Virus record (IMG/VR): IMGVR_UViG_2671180268_000014
Source of the DNA: a virus
Lineage: Duplodnaviria; Heunggongvirae; Uroviricota; Caudoviricetes
Reading direction: 5' to 3' (one strand)
Length of the DNA stretch: 43,810 nt
Under the pieces are notes generated by a model. It was not told where the DNA came from. It ran no database searches and was given only the letters and a program-made list of their open reading frames with translations. This document shows, piece after piece, positions 8,932 to 40,058 of this stretch (the stretch's first letter is position 1; each line of letters opens with the position of its first letter). Position numbers and translations under genes: made by a program.

Positions 8932-9789
8932 ATGCTGTTTGTGCTTATTCTAAGCCACCGGGCAGCATCATACGGGGCAATTATGGCCGCATTACCATAC
9001 ATGCAACTGTACATAGCTGATTACCTGGCTGACACCATGCATTTGTCAGCAGAGGAGCATGGTGCGTATTTGTTGCTGATGTTCAATTACTGGCAAACAG
9101 GAAAGCCAATACCTAAAAACAGGCTGGCAAAAATTGCCCGTCTGACTAACGAGCGATGGGCTGATGTTGAACCATCCTTGCAGGAGTTTTTTTGCGATAA
9201 CGGCGAGGAATGGGTGCATCTTCGGATTGAGGAAGATCTGGCATCAGTCAGGGAAAAATTAACCAAAAAATCAGCCGCAGGAAAAGCATCTGTTCAGGCC
9301 AGAAGAAGCAGAAAGGAAGCAGATGTTCAAACAAAACAAGAGAGAAATTTAACAGGTGTTCAAACAGATGTTGAAGTGGTGTTTGAACATGATGTCAACA
9401 CAAAGGCAACTAATAAAGATACAGATAAAGATCTAAAAACAGATCCCCCCCTAAATCCCCCCCGGGGGAATCGAGGTGTCAAAAAGTTTGACCCTCTGGA
9501 TATTGCTTTGCCGAACTGGATTTCTGTCTCGCTTTGGCGTGAGTGGGTTGAATTTCGCCAGGCATTGCGAAAACCGATTCGAACGGAGCAGGGCGCTAAC
9601 GGGGCGATACGGGAGCTGGAAAAATTCCGCCAGCAGGGTTTTTCACCTGAGCAGGTGATTCGACACAGCATCGCCAATGAATACCAGGGCTTGTTCGCGC
9701 CGAAAGGTGTTCGACCTGAGACGTTACTCCGACAGGTTAACACCGTCTCGTTACCGGATAGTGCGATCCCGCCAGGCTTCAGGGGGTAA
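8932..9789 (+). CDS. Replication initiation-like protein (YdaU/DUF1376-like)
   Basis: 285-aa ORF upstream of a DnaC-like gene. Alternative start at 8983 (MAALPYMQLY) has a better GGGG SD. Confidence 0.5.
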   Translation: MLFVLILSHRAASYGAIMAALPYMQLYIADYLADTMHLSAEEHGAYLLLMFNYWQTGKPIPKNRLAKIARLTNERWADVEPSLQEFFCDNGEEWVHLRIEEDLASVREKLTKKSAAGKASVQARRSRKEADVQTKQERNLTGVQTDVEVVFEHDVNTKATNKDTDKDLKTDPPLNPPRGNRGVKKFDPLDIALPNWISVSLWREWVEFRQALRKPIRTEQGANGAIRELEKFRQQGFSPEQVIRHSIANEYQGLFAPKGVRPETLLRQVNTVSLPDSAIPPGFRG

Positions 9790-9795
9790 CTGACC

Positions 9796-10226
9796 ATGAA
9801 AAATATTGCGACAGGCGACGTTCTTGAACGTATCCGCAGACTGGCCCCGTCACATGTAACCGCGCCATTCAAGACGGTAGCGGAGTGGCGCGAGTGGCAA
9901 CTTTCCGAAGGCCAGAAACGTTGTGAGGAGATCAACCGTCAGAATCGTCAGTTGCGGGTGGAAAAAATTCTGAATCGCTCTGGCATCCAGCCATTGCACC
10001 GCAAATGCTCGTTTTCGAATTACCAGGTGCAGAACGAAGCGCAGCGATACGCGTTGAGTCAGGCGAAATCCATCGCTGATGAACTGATGACCGGGTGTAC
10101 AAATTTTGCGTTCAGCGGAAAACCTGGTACCGGGAAGAACCACTTAGCGGCAGCTATCGGGAATCGCCTGCTGAAAGACGGTCAGACAGTGATTGTGGTT
10201 ACCGTGGCTGATGTTATGAGTGCCCT
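9796..10226 (+). CDS. DnaC-like AAA+ helicase loader (YdaV-like), 3' end lost in assembly gap
   Basis: Walker A GKPGTGKNHLAAAIG. The ORF runs into the N-run at 10227; the true stop is not observable. Confidence 0.7.
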
Positions 10227-10556
10227 NNNNNNNNNNNNNNNNNNNNNNNNNNNNNNNNNNNNNNNNNNNNNNNNNNNNNNNNNNNNNNNNNNNNNNNNNN
10301 NNNNNNNNNNNNNNNNNNNNNNNNNNNNNNNNNNNNNNNNNNNNNNNNNNNNNNNNNNNNNNNNNNNNNNNNNNNNNNNNNNNNNNNNNNNNNNNNNNNN
10401 NNNNNNNNNNNNNNNNNNNNNNNNNNNNNNNNNNNNNNNNNNNNNNNNNNNNNNNNNNNNNNNNNNNNNNNNNNNNNNNNNNNNNNNNNNNNNNNNNNNN
10501 NNNNNNNNNNNNNNNNNNNNNNNNNNNNNNNNNNNNNNNNNNNNNNNNNNNNNNNN
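10227..10556. other. Assembly gap (run of N)
   Basis: 330 consecutive N. The X-runs in ORF-track proteins are artefacts of translating it. Confidence 0.99.
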
Positions 10557-10580
10557 AATTTTTACCGGGAGGAAATTTTT

Positions 10581-11342: not shown

Positions 11343-11774
11343 TTGCCGGAGGCGCTTATGGCAAAAGTTTTTACACAGGAAGAGCGTGAAAAAATTAAGG
11401 AGCAGGTTGTTGAGTTGGTACGCCAGAGTGGGCGCGAGACGTTAAGGCAACTGGAGGCCAAGACAGGTGCGACAAGATATCTGATGAGCATTCTTGCCAG
11501 AGAGTTGGTTGCCAGTGGCGATGTATACAACTCTGGCTATGGGTTATTCCCGTCTGAACAGGCTCGTAAGGATTGGAAAAACGCCCGCAAAAAACTATCC
11601 AGGGCAAAGGTGAAAAAAACGGTTGTGGTTGATCCTGACCTTATCTGGTCATTACCAGACGGAGAAATACGCCGCTATGACAGGCGTCAGAACATAATCT
11701 GTCGCGAGTGCCGGAAGAGTGAAGTTATGAAACGTGTACTGGCATTTTATCAAGGAAATCTTCGGTATTTATAG
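11343..11774 (+). CDS. Hypothetical protein
   Basis: 143-aa ORF abutting the previous gene; basic, with a C-terminal ICRECRK. Alternative start MAKVF at 11358. Confidence 0.35.
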   Translation: MPEALMAKVFTQEEREKIKEQVVELVRQSGRETLRQLEAKTGATRYLMSILARELVASGDVYNSGYGLFPSEQARKDWKNARKKLSRAKVKKTVVVDPDLIWSLPDGEIRRYDRRQNIICRECRKSEVMKRVLAFYQGNLRYL

Positions 11775-11930
11775 ACGTTACTAGATCAAAGAGCATTAGT
11801 TCATATGTAAATTGACATTTTTCTGGCACAGGGGAGAGCTAGCGTGGTTGTCCGCTTTGTGCCAATAGCGGACATTGCTGGCTCATGGTATGTTAGTTTA
11901 AGGAGGCAGGTTATGCCCTGTATTTCGCTG

Positions 11931-11939
11931 TGGTATAAT
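11931..11939 (+). promoter_or_regulatory. Extended -10 promoter element (TGgTATAAT) for the AT-rich cassette
   Basis: TGGTATAAT read directly at 11931-11939, about 34 nt upstream of the GTG at 11973, which has an AGGGAG SD at 11958-11963. No strong -35. Confidence 0.4.
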
Positions 11940-11972
11940 AGTTGCGCAATTGATACAAGGGAGCGTTACATC

Positions 11973-12935
11973 GTGAAAATTGTTTTCGAGGTTAATGGAA
12001 AGAAAGTTCCACTAAAATCTTTAAAATACATAAGCAAAAAAGATCAACTCGAAGTAATGAAAAACTGGTTCTTTGAAAACTTTGAAGATCCGGCAAATGC
12101 TTGTCCGTATGAAAGTAGAGAAGGTGGCTATGCTTACATATATGGCGGGCCGTATGATGCGAGCGAAGAACTACAATCCATCTTCGGTCAATATGTTAAA
12201 TCTGAGTATATTGAGGAATTAGTAGATGAATTACAAACACAATGTTTTGACTGGTCTGGAAACTCAAATAATATAGATGATTGGTACGATGATGATATCT
12301 ACGACGCTGTAACGTCTTCCGGTAATCCGTATTTAAAATTCATTGATAATATCGATAAAATAAAAAAACTTGCAAAAGATAAAACTGAACAACAGCAAAA
12401 AAACCACTTGCTTAGTTTGCTCTACACGAATGTTATTACAGCTTTGGAAACGCTTTATGTTGAGCTATTCATTAATTCTATAGAGAAAGATGATGTCTAC
12501 ATAGCCAATTGTATAGAAAAAGGTAAGACTGAATTTAAAGTAAGCAAAGATATTGCTGCGTTGCCTTTCAAGGGTGAACCCATCGAGAAAATTAGGGGAG
12601 AGCTAATCAGGTCAATCAAGGAACACTTGATCAGTGCAAGCTGGCATAGCACTAAAAAGGTAATCGACCGCTATGAAGCTACATTCGATATAAAAGTACA
12701 AAAAGACTGTCCGATAGAAGCTATTGAATTGGCAACCCTCAATCGAAATCACTTAGTGCATCGTGGTGGAAAGGATAAAGAAGGGAACCTCGTAGTGATT
12801 ACAGACCAGGATCTTGAAACGCTGATTGAAAATGCATCGAACCTGGCAATTATGCTCTACAACAGTTTAAATGTAGCAACGAATAAAACCACCATTTTGC
12901 AACCAGATGACAAACCGTTCATTCATGAATTTTAA
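11973..12935 (+). CDS. Cassette gene A: hypothetical protein with C-terminal Rx4H (HEPN-like) motif
   Basis: AT-rich ORF. GTG start with AGGGAG SD preferred; the six-frame ORF extends upstream to 11844. RNHLVH at 12744-12761 in a helical C-terminal region. No family recognised. Confidence 0.5.
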   Translation: MKIVFEVNGKKVPLKSLKYISKKDQLEVMKNWFFENFEDPANACPYESREGGYAYIYGGPYDASEELQSIFGQYVKSEYIEELVDELQTQCFDWSGNSNNIDDWYDDDIYDAVTSSGNPYLKFIDNIDKIKKLAKDKTEQQQKNHLLSLLYTNVITALETLYVELFINSIEKDDVYIANCIEKGKTEFKVSKDIAALPFKGEPIEKIRGELIRSIKEHLISASWHSTKKVIDRYEATFDIKVQKDCPIEAIELATLNRNHLVHRGGKDKEGNLVVITDQDLETLIENASNLAIMLYNSLNVATNKTTILQPDDKPFIHEF

Positions 12936-12950
12936 TAGCGCAGGTCATAC

Positions 12951-13952
12951 ATGGATATTCGCACACGAAAGACAAAATTTTTAGAGTCGTTAGATTCAAC
13001 TGAAGTGATACGCAAAGCAGTAAGTCTCGCTATAGATTGCATTATTGATAATCATAATAGTAATGAAGATACCCCCTTAGTTATTACCAGCTATGATGAT
13101 CTCTGTAGAATCCAGGTGCTAAATTATGTACAGGAGTTTTGCGAAGCTGCATTCCCTGATATGGATGAATATTACTTTAGTCCTAACATACTTCGCATCA
13201 ACGGCAAGACTAGTGAAGAAGCTTGTATTAACTTAATTAAACTCTTAAGAAGTACAAAAGGCATGCTATTCTGGTCCGATGCCCCATCGTGGTTCGCTAG
13301 CCTCCCCGACGGATTATTCCATGTTGTTAACATTGATCAAAAAATCGTTACTCGCGGCCTTAATAAGAAAAACTCTAAGCCGACAATAATCAATAAAGAT
13401 TACAGTGTAGATACACTACTATCAGAGCTATTTTTGAATGGCGCACACATGGAGCAACCCAACGTACACAACGTTTCTGAGGGAAACATGAAGTTCTATG
13501 ATGAATGCCATGCTGGATTAATCAGACCAATACCCGCTCCAATAGGCGCGTCATACGATGAAGAGATCACAATTAATTCTCCAGATTGGCAAAAGCTCGC
13601 GTGTGTAGCTTTACGCCGCTATCAGTCGAAGGAATGTCATGACGGAATGCAATGGGATACAACCGATCATGGTTGGACTGATGTAATCGCGTATCCATTC
13701 GTCGAAGAAATACAATCAATGGATAATAGTGGTTATCGACAATGTTTAGTTGGGCTGGTCACAATAAACAATTCAAATGCAAATTCTCCGTACCTATCTA
13801 CCGTTTGGATACATCCATTTTATCGCAGGAGAGGGTTATTAAGTAAGTTATGGCCAAAATTACAAGAGTTATATGGAAGTAACTTCGAAATTGAGCGACC
13901 TAATGAAAATATGAAAGCATTTCTGAAAAGTGCGAAACACGCAGATTACTAA
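12951..13952 (+). CDS. Cassette gene B: hypothetical protein with GNAT-like C-terminal motif
   Basis: AT-rich 333-aa ORF 15 nt downstream of gene A. C-terminus VWIHPFYRRRGLLSKLW resembles the GNAT motif A strand-turn-helix. Fold assignment is inference only. Confidence 0.5.
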   Translation: MDIRTRKTKFLESLDSTEVIRKAVSLAIDCIIDNHNSNEDTPLVITSYDDLCRIQVLNYVQEFCEAAFPDMDEYYFSPNILRINGKTSEEACINLIKLLRSTKGMLFWSDAPSWFASLPDGLFHVVNIDQKIVTRGLNKKNSKPTIINKDYSVDTLLSELFLNGAHMEQPNVHNVSEGNMKFYDECHAGLIRPIPAPIGASYDEEITINSPDWQKLACVALRRYQSKECHDGMQWDTTDHGWTDVIAYPFVEEIQSMDNSGYRQCLVGLVTINNSNANSPYLSTVWIHPFYRRRGLLSKLWPKLQELYGSNFEIERPNENMKAFLKSAKHADY

Positions 13953-14572
13953 TTTATGAATCAGTCTGTGGAGTTAGGGTTGGTGTGAACAAGTAGGGTA
14001 AGAGCCTCAACGTGATGCTATGCCGACCTGCTCCCTGAGAATTCACACAGAAGGCTGCTAGCAATGTCTGCAGATCGCTCAAAGCGGACTAAAATGTTGG
14101 CTTGTTTCTGACTTAGAGCATTTAAGGAAGTGCTGGTGGTGACTGGTTGTTGTGTTCCATTTCTACAGAATAAAATCACAGAAACTATACCCAATAGTTG
14201 TATTGAATCACTGACGAGACAGCCTCATATTTATCAGGACTGGTGTGCGTCTAATACAGGGGGTTGTCGTGCTGGTTCTCAAATGTGCGCTGGCTATTGC
14301 GGCTGTAATGGCAATTTATTGTCTTGCTGTTGTTCTTATGGAGCGGCTTTCTGATTGATTACATACTGGCTAGAAAAAAGGTGTTACCTTGGTTTATCTT
14401 TGTCCGGCAAGGTGCGCTCATTAATCTTAAGTAAATTTATTGCTCAAGTATTCAGATTACTTCTTATGGTTGAAGTCTCCTGTCAATGTAGAACCAATAT
14501 ATTTACAAAAATGAGACCCGTCGGGGATAGCCCTGCCGGGTCTGACTGTTAAAGCATTTTTAATATGATCAT

Positions 14573-14911
14573 CTATTTTTTGGTGCTATAGACTTTTTCG
14601 CCCGAAAAGTCTGGAGCGACCCAAAAGTTAATATTAAACTGAGCATCATCGCTTAGTTCAACACGGTGCCAGTATTGTGGTGGGCTTGTTGCAAAAGCGC
14701 CAGCATTAATGACTACTTTTATCTCCGGTTCAGTAGCATTCTCATCAGTAAAACCATAATATGTTACAGTGCCTTCCATTACGCACAACTGCCCAAAAAC
14801 ACCTGCTGCTGTATTATGATGTGTTAATAACGCTGAAGGTACGTTCTCTTTTGTGAAGAACGGAGTTGAGCGTTTGATTACCCAATCTTTAGGAATTCTC
14901 TTGTGTGTCAT
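14573..14911 (-). CDS. YeaR-like DUF1971 protein
   Basis: Start at internal ATG 14911 with GGAGG SD. Segments RSTPFF and FNINFWVAPDF resemble recalled E. coli YeaR (RSTPFW, FNIDFFVAPE). Confidence 0.55.
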   Translation of the reverse strand: MTHKRIPKDWVIKRSTPFFTKENVPSALLTHHNTAAGVFGQLCVMEGTVTYYGFTDENATEPEIKVVINAGAFATSPPQYWHRVELSDDAQFNINFWVAPDFSGEKVYSTKK

Positions 14912-15724
14912 AACCACCTCCTCCAAAACATGCATTAAAAATGCATCTTTTGGAGGGTTATGTCAAGCTGTTATGAAACACATAATTGATATGTTGATTA
15001 GAGGAGAAGATAGAATAAATATGGTTGTTTTTCGTATAACTATTTGTTTTACTTTTAGTTTATGCATTCTGTGTGTTAGGAATAAGTTATTAAAGTTTAA
15101 TCAAAAAATCTCGATGTAGTCCACATAGATTACTGTTACTGAACCTTATTGTGTGTATTAGTTGTGTTCTGAAATTTCAGCTTAATTATTTATGATGTAT
15201 TTTTTAACGATAAATATTTTCCCAGGATACCTTTACTGTGTATATAAATAAATTATATACGCATAAATAATGTAAAGGCGTCCTTTTAGATATATCTTAT
15301 CAAATGTTAATGACTTGAGTGGGAAATATGATTCCAGCAACTTATCATGTGGCTACTTTATAAAAATAATGCCCATATAAAACAACAAGCGAAAAGGATT
15401 ACGGATAAAAAAGGAGCGAGATGTGCGAACTTGTTATTTTCCATGTTTAACCACCTTAAATAATTGATGATGACGGGATGATTGCATCTGTAATGCTTTT
15501 ATTGAAATGTTATGATAAAAAAGAACTTTTGCATAACATTAAAATGTAATTTATCTAATCGTTTTTAATAATAAGTGTCGTATTTCTATCCTTGTACCAG
15601 CTATTTGATATGTAGTGTTTGTTCATGCTATGTGGGGCTTTACACCATAGCCAGTTTATTTATACTTTATTCGTCAGCCTGAACAACTGGCATCTGCTGC
15701 GCTGCGCCATCGAGAGATTGAGAA

Positions 15725-16324
15725 ATGGCGCATATACAACTGGTCAAACAAACCTCTTCTGGTTTACTTCTCCCGGCGACGCCGGAGAGTTGCGATTTTC
15801 TGCATCAAATCAAAATAGGTGAGTGGATACACGCAGACTTTAAGCGTGTGCGTAACTACGCATTCCACAAGCGTTTTTTCAAACTCCTGCAACTGGGATT
15901 CGATTACTGGACTCCGGTCGGTGGGGCGATCACGCCTCGCGAACGAGAACTGCTGTCTGGTTTCGTTGATTACCTGTGCGAATCAGTTGGTCGGGAACAC
16001 ACGCCAGCCCTGAGTGATGCCGCAGAGCAATACCTTAACACCGTTGCGACTCGTAGAACCCGGGATACGGCGTTGCTAAAGTCGTTTGAGGCTTTCCGCG
16101 AGTGGGTAACCATTCAGGCCGGATTTTACACCGAGCATATTTATCCGGACGGTAGCCGTGGGCGTCGGGCAAAATCCATCGCTTTTGCGAATATGGACGA
16201 AGTCGAGTTTCAGCAGGTTTATAAATCTGTACTGAATGTGCTGTGGAACTGGATTCTGTTCCGTAAATTCTCCTCTCAGGAGGAAGTTGAAAATGTGGCC
16301 GCACAACTACTGGAGTTTGCGTAA
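15725..16324 (+). CDS. DUF1367-like nin-region protein
   Basis: 199-aa ORF immediately upstream of a YbcO-like gene, in the usual nin-region order. Family call from recalled similarity. Confidence 0.45.
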   Translation: MAHIQLVKQTSSGLLLPATPESCDFLHQIKIGEWIHADFKRVRNYAFHKRFFKLLQLGFDYWTPVGGAITPRERELLSGFVDYLCESVGREHTPALSDAAEQYLNTVATRRTRDTALLKSFEAFREWVTIQAGFYTEHIYPDGSRGRRAKSIAFANMDEVEFQQVYKSVLNVLWNWILFRKFSSQEEVENVAAQLLEFA

Positions 16325-18626: not shown

Positions 18627-18776
18627 TATTTATTGTTTTGTAATAAACGGTTTCGGCTTAGGTTTGTTCTGACACAGCTACGGCACTGAGCTAAATTTAG
18701 CGGATAGTCAGCTCTGAGCCAGTGGCGGACGTAACAACTACTATTGCTGAGATTTTAATGGATTGAGGAGCAAGAA

Positions 18777-39233: not shown

Positions 39234-40058
39234 ATGACACAGACAGAATCAGCGATTCTGGCGCACGCCCGGCGATGTGCGCCAGCGGAGTCGTGCGGCT
39301 TCGTGGTGAGAACACCGGAGGGGGAAAGATATTTTCCCTGCGTGAATATTTCCGGTGAGCCGGAGGAGTATTTCCGNNNNNNNNNNNNNNNNNNNNNNNN
39401 NNNNNNNNNNNNNNNNNNNNNNNNNNNNNNNNNNNNNNNNNNNNNNNNNNNNNNNNNNNNNNNNNNNNNNNNNNNNNNNNNNNNNNNNNNNNNNNNNNNN
39501 NNNNNNNNNNNNNNNNNNNNNNNNNNNNNNNNNNNNNNNNNNNNNNNNNNNNNNNNNNNNNNNNNNNNNNNNNNNNNNNNNNNNNNNNNNNNNNNNNNNN
39601 NNNNNNNNNNNNNNNNNNNNNNNNNNNNNNNNNNNNNNNNNNNNNNNNNNNNNNNNNNNNNNNNNNNNNNNNNNNNNNNNNNNNNNNNNNNNNNNNNNNN
39701 NNNNCTGGCGGGAATTGAGATGCCAGATTTTCATCGTGAGGACGACTGGTGGCGTAATGGTCAGAATCTCTATCTGGATAATCTGGAGGCTACAGGGCTG
39801 TATCAGGTGCCGTTGTCAACGGCGCAGCCGGGCGATGTGCTGCTGTGCTGTTTTGGTTCATCGGTGCCGAATCATGCCGCCATTTACTGTGGTGACGGCG
39901 AGCTGCTGCACCATATTCCTGAACAACTGAGTAAACGAGAGAGGTACACCGACAAATGGCAGCGACGCACACACTCCCTCTGGCGTCACCGGGCATGGCA
40001 CGCATCTGCCTTTACGGGGATTTGCAGCGATTTGGCCGCCGCATCGACCTTCGTGTGA
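39234..40058 (+). CDS. K: Tail assembly protein K (lambda K-like), interrupted by assembly gap
   Basis: Both ends match recalled lambda K (N-terminus MTQTESAILAHARRCAPAESCGFVV; C-terminus ...VLLCCFGSSVPNHAAIYCGDGELLHHIPEQLSKRERY...). The N-run at 39377-39704 is longer than the roughly 100 nt expected to be missing, so the internal frame is not reliable. Confidence 0.8.
   Translation: MTQTESAILAHARRCAPAESCGFVVRTPEGERYFPCVNISGEPEEYFXXXXXXXXXXXXXXXXXXXXXXXXXXXXXXXXXXXXXXXXXXXXXXXXXXXXXXXXXXXXXXXXXXXXXXXXXXXXXXXXXXXXXXXXXXXXXXXXXXXXXXXXXXXXXXLAGIEMPDFHREDDWWRNGQNLYLDNLEATGLYQVPLSTAQPGDVLLCCFGSSVPNHAAIYCGDGELLHHIPEQLSKRERYTDKWQRRTHSLWRHRAWHASAFTGICSDLAAASTFV
39377..39704. other. Assembly gap (run of N) inside gene K
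   Basis: 328 consecutive N. Confidence 0.99.

Follow-up and report, generated by a model that had tools for sequence, protein, structure and literature searches.

HEPN/RES-NTD1, an N-terminal domain (NTD), has been catalogued in fusions with HEPN, RES and other domains, and for such architectures the NTD has been inferred to sense the invader and to hold a suicidal RNase in check (Anantharaman et al. 2013, PMC3710099). Proteins of this abortive infection (Abi) type, the HEPN-MNT (HepT-MntA) type VII modules, the GNAT-RHH modules and the cargo units of prophage hotspots are the described systems with which we compare a two-gene cassette of a tailed phage. The window, that is, the whole stretch of 43,810 nt analyzed (IMG/VR record IMGVR_UViG_2671180268_000014), is a Rac-type lambdoid prophage with an integrase at its start. 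Genes A and B of the cassette occupy a repeat-bounded unit at 11850–14089 and encode, respectively, a HEPN RNase candidate and a GNAT-fold protein; the unit plausibly serves the lysogen as a defence.

The products of genes A and B

Gene A (11973–12935, + strand) starts with GTG and encodes 320 amino acids (aa). Its N-terminal HEPN/RES-NTD1 domain (approximately residues 1–115; 11973–12317, + strand) is followed by a C-terminal HEPN RNase domain (approximately residues 119–308; 12327–12896, + strand), in which the alignment locates an Rx4H motif (R258-N-H-L-V-H263; 12744–12761, + strand). For the A family, 122 homologues were collected and 55 aligned. R258 and H263, along with E159, W224 and H225, are invariant in all 55, down to 26% identity. 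The fold is all-alpha HEPN with a four-helix core, and the best structural matches include 8xdj, 7ae2 and 5yep, which are HEPN toxins controlled by covalent modification. Among the aligned members, 52 match PF18870 (HEPN/RES N-terminal domain 1), and 30 match PF18735 (RiboL-PSP-HEPN) at E ≤ 0.01, with a best E of 7e-11. We infer that A belongs to the HEPN RNases, with predicted RNase activity, and that its architecture resembles that of Abi proteins.

The NTD of A is better conserved than the HEPN domain and is characterized by the motif W-F-x-x-N-F-E-D-P...P-Y-E-S-x-E-G-G-Y-x-Y-I-Y-G-G-P-Y-D. The same NTD is joined to other C-terminal domains in P0116–P0120 and at loci L060–L083. The most conserved motif of the domain, CPYESREGGYAYIYGGPYD (residues 45–61; 12105–12155), coincides with the least confident part of the AlphaFold2 (AF2) model, where the predicted local distance difference test (pLDDT) score is 53–60; it may be a ligand- or partner-binding loop.

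Gene B (12951–13952, + strand), preceded by a weak Shine-Dalgarno (SD) sequence (CAGG), starts 15 nt past the stop of A and encodes 333 aa. The AF2 model is confident (pLDDT 90.6) and comprises a family-specific alpha/beta domain at the N-terminus (approximately residues 1–190, + strand) and a C-terminal domain with the GNAT fold (approximately residues 190–333, + strand). Motif A of the GNAT fold is partly kept. In the corresponding stretch (R292-R-R-G-L-L; 13824–13841, + strand), only R292 is invariant, position 295 can be G, R, Q or E, and L or M stands in place of the final G/A in the alignment. Gene B itself scores 19.9 bits against PF00583 (cut-off 20.7), and 17 of 45 family members match at E ≤ 0.01. 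In an exhaustive search of 1.84 billion proteins with HMMER, which yielded 20 clusters, the N-terminal ~190 residues had no relative outside the family, and no other architecture containing this domain occurred among the 1.84 billion representatives. The BFVD search with B returned only generic phage GNATs of 150 aa. B is probably an acyltransferase-fold protein with a function of its own, for which acetyl transfer is predicted.

All public sources call both proteins hypothetical, and the function of their PHROG families is unassigned. The NCBIfam search gave no useful match for A or B, and comparison of the two family profiles with all PDB chains gave nothing meaningful (best E = 0.034–0.04, spurious). 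The sequence-only reading of this DNA had presented the pair as undescribed. That holds insofar as no paper describing the pair, and no experimental work on the A family, was found in the literature and no PADLOC model matches either protein; it does not hold for the architecture of A, which had been catalogued, with an Abi-like role inferred, in 2013 (PMC3710099).

RefSeq calls these two coding sequences at an identical E. coli locus. The cassette has a GC content of 39.0% (A, 36.1%; B, 39.1%), compared with 49.3% in the replication-region genes that precede it and 49.1% in the nin-like genes that follow, and GC at third codon positions is 0.35 in A and 0.36 in B versus 0.47–0.53 in the flanks; in a scan across the whole window, only 1.9% of 2240-bp windows are below 38.5% GC. 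Both genes are under purifying selection, with ratios of nonsynonymous to synonymous divergence (dN/dS) of 0.12–0.21 for A and 0.25–0.43 for B.

An extended −10 element, TGGTATAAT (11931–11939, + strand), was read directly from the sequence; a simple two-hexamer scan misses it because no good −35 accompanies it. An SD sequence, AGGGAG (11958–11963, + strand), lies 9 nt ahead of the GTG of A. The −10 element (as TGGTAYAAT), the SD sequence (as AAGGRRG) and the GTG start are kept in copies at ~83–86% nucleotide identity. With its own sigma-70 extended −10 promoter, the cassette could therefore be expressed in the lysogen. Thus, the earlier observations of two co-directional open reading frames (ORFs) 15 nt apart, AT-rich foreign cargo, a dedicated promoter with its SD sequence, an Rx4H motif in A and a GNAT-like motif in B, the last real at the level of the fold, were all borne out.

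An ATG at 11913 was considered as the true start of A and rejected, as diverged copies lack it; the conserved −10 element is located downstream of it. Together with a strong SD sequence (AAGGAGG), it forms an in-frame start region at 11900–11915 that yields the 340-aa form found in some annotations and in the PHROG profile.

End repeats and the cargo between them

The cassette is delimited by two inverted repeats of ~30 nt. The left end, GTCCGCTTTGTGCCAATAGCGGACATTGCT (11850–11879, + strand), holds the 24-bp dyad GTCCGCT-N10-AGCGGAC, and its inverted partner, the right end GTCCGCTTTGAGCGATCTGCAGACATTGCT (14060–14089, − strand), bears the dyad as well; zero matches of this kind are expected by chance. 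The two ends differ at two fixed central positions of the dyad. Where the same cargo occurs in Serratia, Aeromonas-type and metagenomic contexts, homology covers exactly 11850 to 14089/14090. Compared with sister prophages carrying other cargo, homology stops at 11877/11878 and resumes at 14063 (phage Tritos) or 14075 (L002, E. coli WCHEC115106, which has three cassettes in place of the one in the window). These breaks fall in the end repeats, which marks the ends as the zone of crossover. The functional and mobile unit is thus the 2.2 kb from 11850 to 14089, rather than the 11811–13952 assigned in the earlier reading, and the low-GC block reaches farther still, to ~15724.

A profile of the ends identified 151 cassettes with 39 cargo types among 283 loci. 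The cassettes hold 1–3 genes each and often form arrays, with 11–18 nt between a right end and the left end of the next cassette. Loci with such ends include L002, L003, L103, L110–L113, L129, L131, L133, L136, L137, L164 and many of L165–L283, and the cargo they bound resides in lambdoid prophages, P2-like phages and genomic islands. Of 5426 complete E. coli genomes, 744 contain the junction element and 205 the full cassette; ~700 E. coli genomes have nothing but the junction in common with the window here and hold different cargo at the site. Clusters at ≥90% identity cover many Enterobacterales genera. In P2-like phages (e.g. 899), the junction element lies between the tail-fibre-assembly and tail-sheath genes, at what we take to be the P2 Z/fun cargo site. 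At the hotspot of the window, as at those of unrelated phages and islands, the cargo is organized in cassettes with shared dyad ends, where exchange occurs.

In marine metagenome contigs (TARA; L152, with L151), a B relative of 46% identity, followed by a 754-aa ORF, lies between two copies of the end repeat (L152, 4876–8416; E = 8e-6 and 8.5e-4) on a gammaproteobacterial contig. Weak but recognizable ends surround this marine relative, and the repeat system therefore extends beyond Enterobacterales.

Of the evidence available, the identity of what is carried between these ends speaks most strongly, although indirectly, for a defence role of the A-B cassette. The matched cargo includes PD-T7-1, AbiH, PDC-S15, PDC-S33, PDC-S39, PDC-S06, a ThsB-like TIR protein and CBASS-type endonuclease domains. 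At the very prophage site occupied by A and B, PD-T7-1 is found in L002 and PDC-S15 in Tritos, in similar repeat-bounded units. The claim that the locus between the replication and nin/Q genes is a variable site for accessory cargo was therefore confirmed, and the defence reading of the cassette, itself plausible, has gained contextual support. Some large intervals between ends hold LysR, MFS and alkyl sulfatase genes; these are probably false pairings of distant ends.

A rival proposal is that A and B are counter-defence or lytic accessory genes, with which the carrier phage would defeat the immunity of the host or of a resident prophage, for example, through acetylation or degradation of a host defence component. 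The cassette is on the strand of the early-right (pR) operon, in the delayed-early region, and small GNAT proteins are common in phages. In phage lambda, the position that we take to be equivalent is occupied by ren, an anti-exclusion gene. However, the cassette has its own promoter, it is also found outside phages, on a relaxase-bearing Aeromonas element and on chromosomal islands bounded by integrases, and the cassettes with the same ends carry their defence genes in either orientation. No known anti-defence protein is among the structural matches of A and B, and HEPN RNases with an N-terminal sensor are typical of host-side suicide effectors (PMC3710099). Counter-defence had been considered equally possible in the sequence-only reading; nothing found speaks specifically for it, and we regard it as very unlikely.

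How the cassettes are exchanged was approached from the structure of the ends. An attC-like hairpin was rejected, as changes in the dyad arms are one-sided (165 unpaired and 53 G-T pairs versus 11 compensated). The Rfam search of 11600–15800 gave no match, and the ends are accordingly not a known RNA element. No target-site duplication is visible in any flank and no recombinase recurs across the cassettes. The lack of duplications and the arrays with conserved 11–18 nt spacers fit exchange at fixed sites better than transposition. Taken together, the one-sided arm changes and the null results for Rfam, duplications and recombinases leave as candidates a double-stranded recombination site or plain short-homology exchange. 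The prophage itself encodes RecET. In L002, a 202-aa ORF for a tyrosine recombinase (annotated as 'site-specific integrase'; 9284–9892) lies exactly between one right end and the next left end; it recurs only in that array type, with a fragment in L103.

We tentatively suggest, with more doubt than confidence, that the A-B unit is one of a set of unrecognized or barely described exchangeable defence cassettes, each of one or two genes between two inverted dyads, whose left and right types, differing at the two fixed central positions, would recombine like with like through a recombinase supplied in trans. In Enterobacterales and some marine Gammaproteobacteria, lambdoid prophages, P2-like phages and genomic islands would thus have a natural counterpart of recombinase-mediated cassette exchange. 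The title of a 2004 report by Nilsson et al. hints at a possible precedent for the repeats in P2-like phages. Boundary repeats are not mentioned in two papers on prophage hotspots (PMC9122126 and PMC13586616).

An identical copy of the region adjoins ttcA in E. coli FORC_081. Its gene order starts with intR, xisR, ralR, recT, recE, kilR, sieB, the repressors and ydaT and continues with the replication genes (DUF1376, DnaC, DUF1627 and DUF977) and two hypothetical proteins, A and B. These are followed by DUF1971 (on the opposite strand), DUF1367, DUF1364, DUF1133 and the lysis genes. The cargo hotspot that the cassette occupies has the replication genes on one side and the nin-like genes on the other. 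Runs of N (658 in total) are located at ~10227–10560, where they mask part of the DnaC-like replication gene, and in a run ending at 39704; ORF calls within these runs are unreliable.

Beyond the right end, the low-GC block goes on from 14090 to 15724 (35.7% GC). It contains a degenerate left-end-like sequence after the right end (~14106), shows homology to Tritos and L002 until 14373, and may be a decayed second cargo unit. The stretch common to Tritos and L002 contains an unannotated ORF of 74 aa (14130–14354, + strand) with 12 cysteines (…GCCVPF…CAGYCGCNGNLLSCCCSYG…). Next come the DUF1971 gene (14573–14935, − strand) and, after it, 789 nt of non-coding DNA with a GC content of 30.5%. Another cassette boundary could lie farther downstream, at 18703–18733, where the end-repeat profile gives a weak match (E = 0.035); two TolA-like cargo genes enclose this site, ahead of the lysis genes.

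Separability of A and B and the case for defence

The relationship between the two genes was assessed in two surveys, one covering 80 genomic loci with relatives of A, from many phyla, and the other 80 loci found through B. B is missing from 77 of the 80 A loci, as a B relative follows only in near-identical copies; even A relatives of 75–76% identity (Aeromonas taiwanensis and Yersinia alsatica) stand alone. The ~500 ORFs flanking A in the 80 loci include no family with more than three occurrences and so provide no conserved partner for A. From the side of B, the pair and its short spacer are present wherever B is 73–100% identical, A then being 84–100% identical, and pairing is confined to one Enterobacterales/Aeromonas lineage. 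Next to B relatives below ~56% identity, which are mostly marine, A is never present and there is no other recurrent neighbour.

Within the paired lineage, A was lost in whole or in part at least four times independently, each time with B left intact (L091; L103/L134; L104; and L110–113, which retain only the last 39–64 codons of A). The reverse, loss of B with A kept, was never seen in this clade. The deletion in L103 and L134 joins the promoter to the tail of A just ahead of B; the −10 element is retained and would drive B there. After this common deletion, B differs between L103 and L134 by a dN of 0.001 and a dS of 0.056, and selection therefore maintains B without A. Taken together, these observations speak for A being dispensable and carrying a cost, and for B being more than its antidote; one-way loss of A would be expected of a costly or toxic effector.

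An obligate toxin with its modifying enzyme, resembling the type VII HEPN-MNT modules, could account for some of these observations. B would bind A through its N-terminal domain and acylate or otherwise neutralize it, and infection would free A. The single promoter and a spacer whose length suits translational coupling are in line with this, as are the inheritance of the two genes as one cassette in different mobile elements, the direction of gene loss, expected for a toxin and its antidote, and the covalently controlled HEPN toxins among the best structural matches of A. But neither B nor any other recurrent partner accompanies the A relatives at 75–76% identity and at least 70 further ones, relatives of B occur alone in marine Gammaproteobacteria, and B remains under purifying selection once A is gone. 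Moreover, in B, motif A is degenerate, with a leucine at what the motif reading suggests is the usual position of the catalytic tyrosine, and no DNA-binding domain is available for autoregulation. The toxin-first gene order is likewise unlike that generally known for HEPN-MNT or GNAT-RHH modules. We therefore consider an obligate pair unlikely. A and B form a system only loosely and are separable genes; the earlier notion of an effector coupled to a modifier or sensor is not supported as an obligate pairing.

Separability in turn raises the possibility that A and B are two unrelated passengers linked by descent, either selfish and addictive or non-immune, with A acting, for example, in stress RNA turnover and B as a housekeeping-type acyltransferase. 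That both families are solitary elsewhere, that PADLOC has no match for them and that some cargo between the ends is plainly non-defence, if mostly from the probably false pairings, would all agree with this. Yet the pair is kept as a unit in several different mobile contexts, cargo of these cassettes is strongly linked to defence genes, and the two families, which have spread rapidly between genera, are found only in mobile or variable regions. Mere co-inheritance of passengers accordingly appears improbable. In Aeromonas caviae (L114–L117), the pair (A 86% and B 79% identical) is on the relaxase-bearing element without end repeats and adjoins SIR2 and cREC_REC genes, a defence-like neighbourhood.

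We favour, at a probability of about one half, a reading in which the prophage uses the cassette to protect its lysogen from other phages; A would be the Abi-type HEPN effector, and B would contribute an accessory function or one of its own. The NTD of A would keep the HEPN RNase silent until an infection cue is sensed; once triggered, A would cleave RNA (mRNA, tRNA or rRNA), which would halt translation and abort the superinfecting phage. B might provide a second, independent cargo function or modulate A as an accessory in this lineage.

Several points weigh against the defence reading. A by itself scores 22.2 bits against PF18870, below the gathering threshold of 27.4, and does not match PF18735, so that its Pfam domain assignment rests on the other family members and on the fold. 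The PADLOC-DB v2.0.0 models give no significant match to A (best E 0.009–0.022, on short stretches) and none to B. The neighbourhoods of solitary A relatives hold integrases, transposases, restriction-modification genes, AbiJ_NTD3 and ArdA along with ordinary genes, and are mobile or variable regions rather than clear defence islands. The asymmetry of A loss could stem in part from truncations on the 5' side. With roughly half of the other cassette cargo lacking any match, guilt by association is suggestive only. Lytic growth would also transcribe the cassette, which lies on the strand of the early-right operon, and, given ren at the equivalent position of lambda, position alone cannot separate defence from counter-defence. 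RNase activity, toxicity, phage resistance and acetyl transfer are all predicted properties.

If the cassette does protect lysogens, this HEPN family would join the prophage defence repertoire, the NTD common to RES toxins would offer a handle on how such domains sense infection, and a small GNAT-fold family would gain its first biological context. The boundary repeats matter apart from A and B: they mark cargo units precisely and are directly searchable. They turn the hotspot cargo of lambdoid and P2-like prophages into discrete candidates, with 39 types in a small sample, about half of them unmatched, and they suggest a concrete mechanism for shuffling defence genes between unrelated mobile elements.

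Comparison with known systems

Of the systems considered for B, the GNAT-RHH modules (TacAT, AtaRT and ItaRT) likewise comprise a GNAT-fold protein on mobile DNA. GNAT-RHH toxins are half as long as B and are paired with an RHH antitoxin, which B lacks; in addition, B has a unique N-terminal domain and a degenerate motif A and is tolerated alone. The HEPN-MNT modules share with A and B a HEPN RNase next to a co-transcribed partner with an enzyme fold, and their HEPN toxins supply the best structural matches of A (8xdj, 5yep and 7ae2). In the cassette, however, the partner has the GNAT rather than the nucleotidyltransferase fold, the gene order is reversed, and A has an extra N-terminal domain. 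Those modules are defined by an MNT partner and obligate pairing, whereas A is solitary at 77 of 80 loci and B persists alone.

As mobile DNA, the unit resembles integron cassettes and the cargo of P2-like/P4 hotspots (Rousset et al. 2022, PMC9122126; PMC13586616), which are also small units of 1–2 genes, often for defence, arrayed at a fixed hotspot and exchanged as modules. It differs from integron cassettes in having two inverted ends with 24-bp dyads instead of one attC, without R''/R' boxes, compensatory arm changes, IntI or a recurrent recombinase. With regard to transposons or miniature inverted-repeat transposable elements, inverted ends are present, duplications are not visible, and the units form arrays with 11–18 nt spacers.

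The closest known counterparts of A are the Abi-type HEPN proteins (AbiJ-NTD/HEPN, and MAE_18760-family HEPN with HEPN/RES-NTD1; PMC3710099). Like A, they have a conserved NTD, of a type also joined to other toxin domains, followed by a HEPN domain with an intact Rx4H motif, and, like A, they are mostly encoded by stand-alone genes in variable regions. By Pfam, the HEPN part of the family is assigned to PF18735, whereas the 2013 table ties NTD1 to the MAE_18760 family. Unlike these proteins, A has in the present lineage gained a co-transcribed GNAT-fold neighbour.

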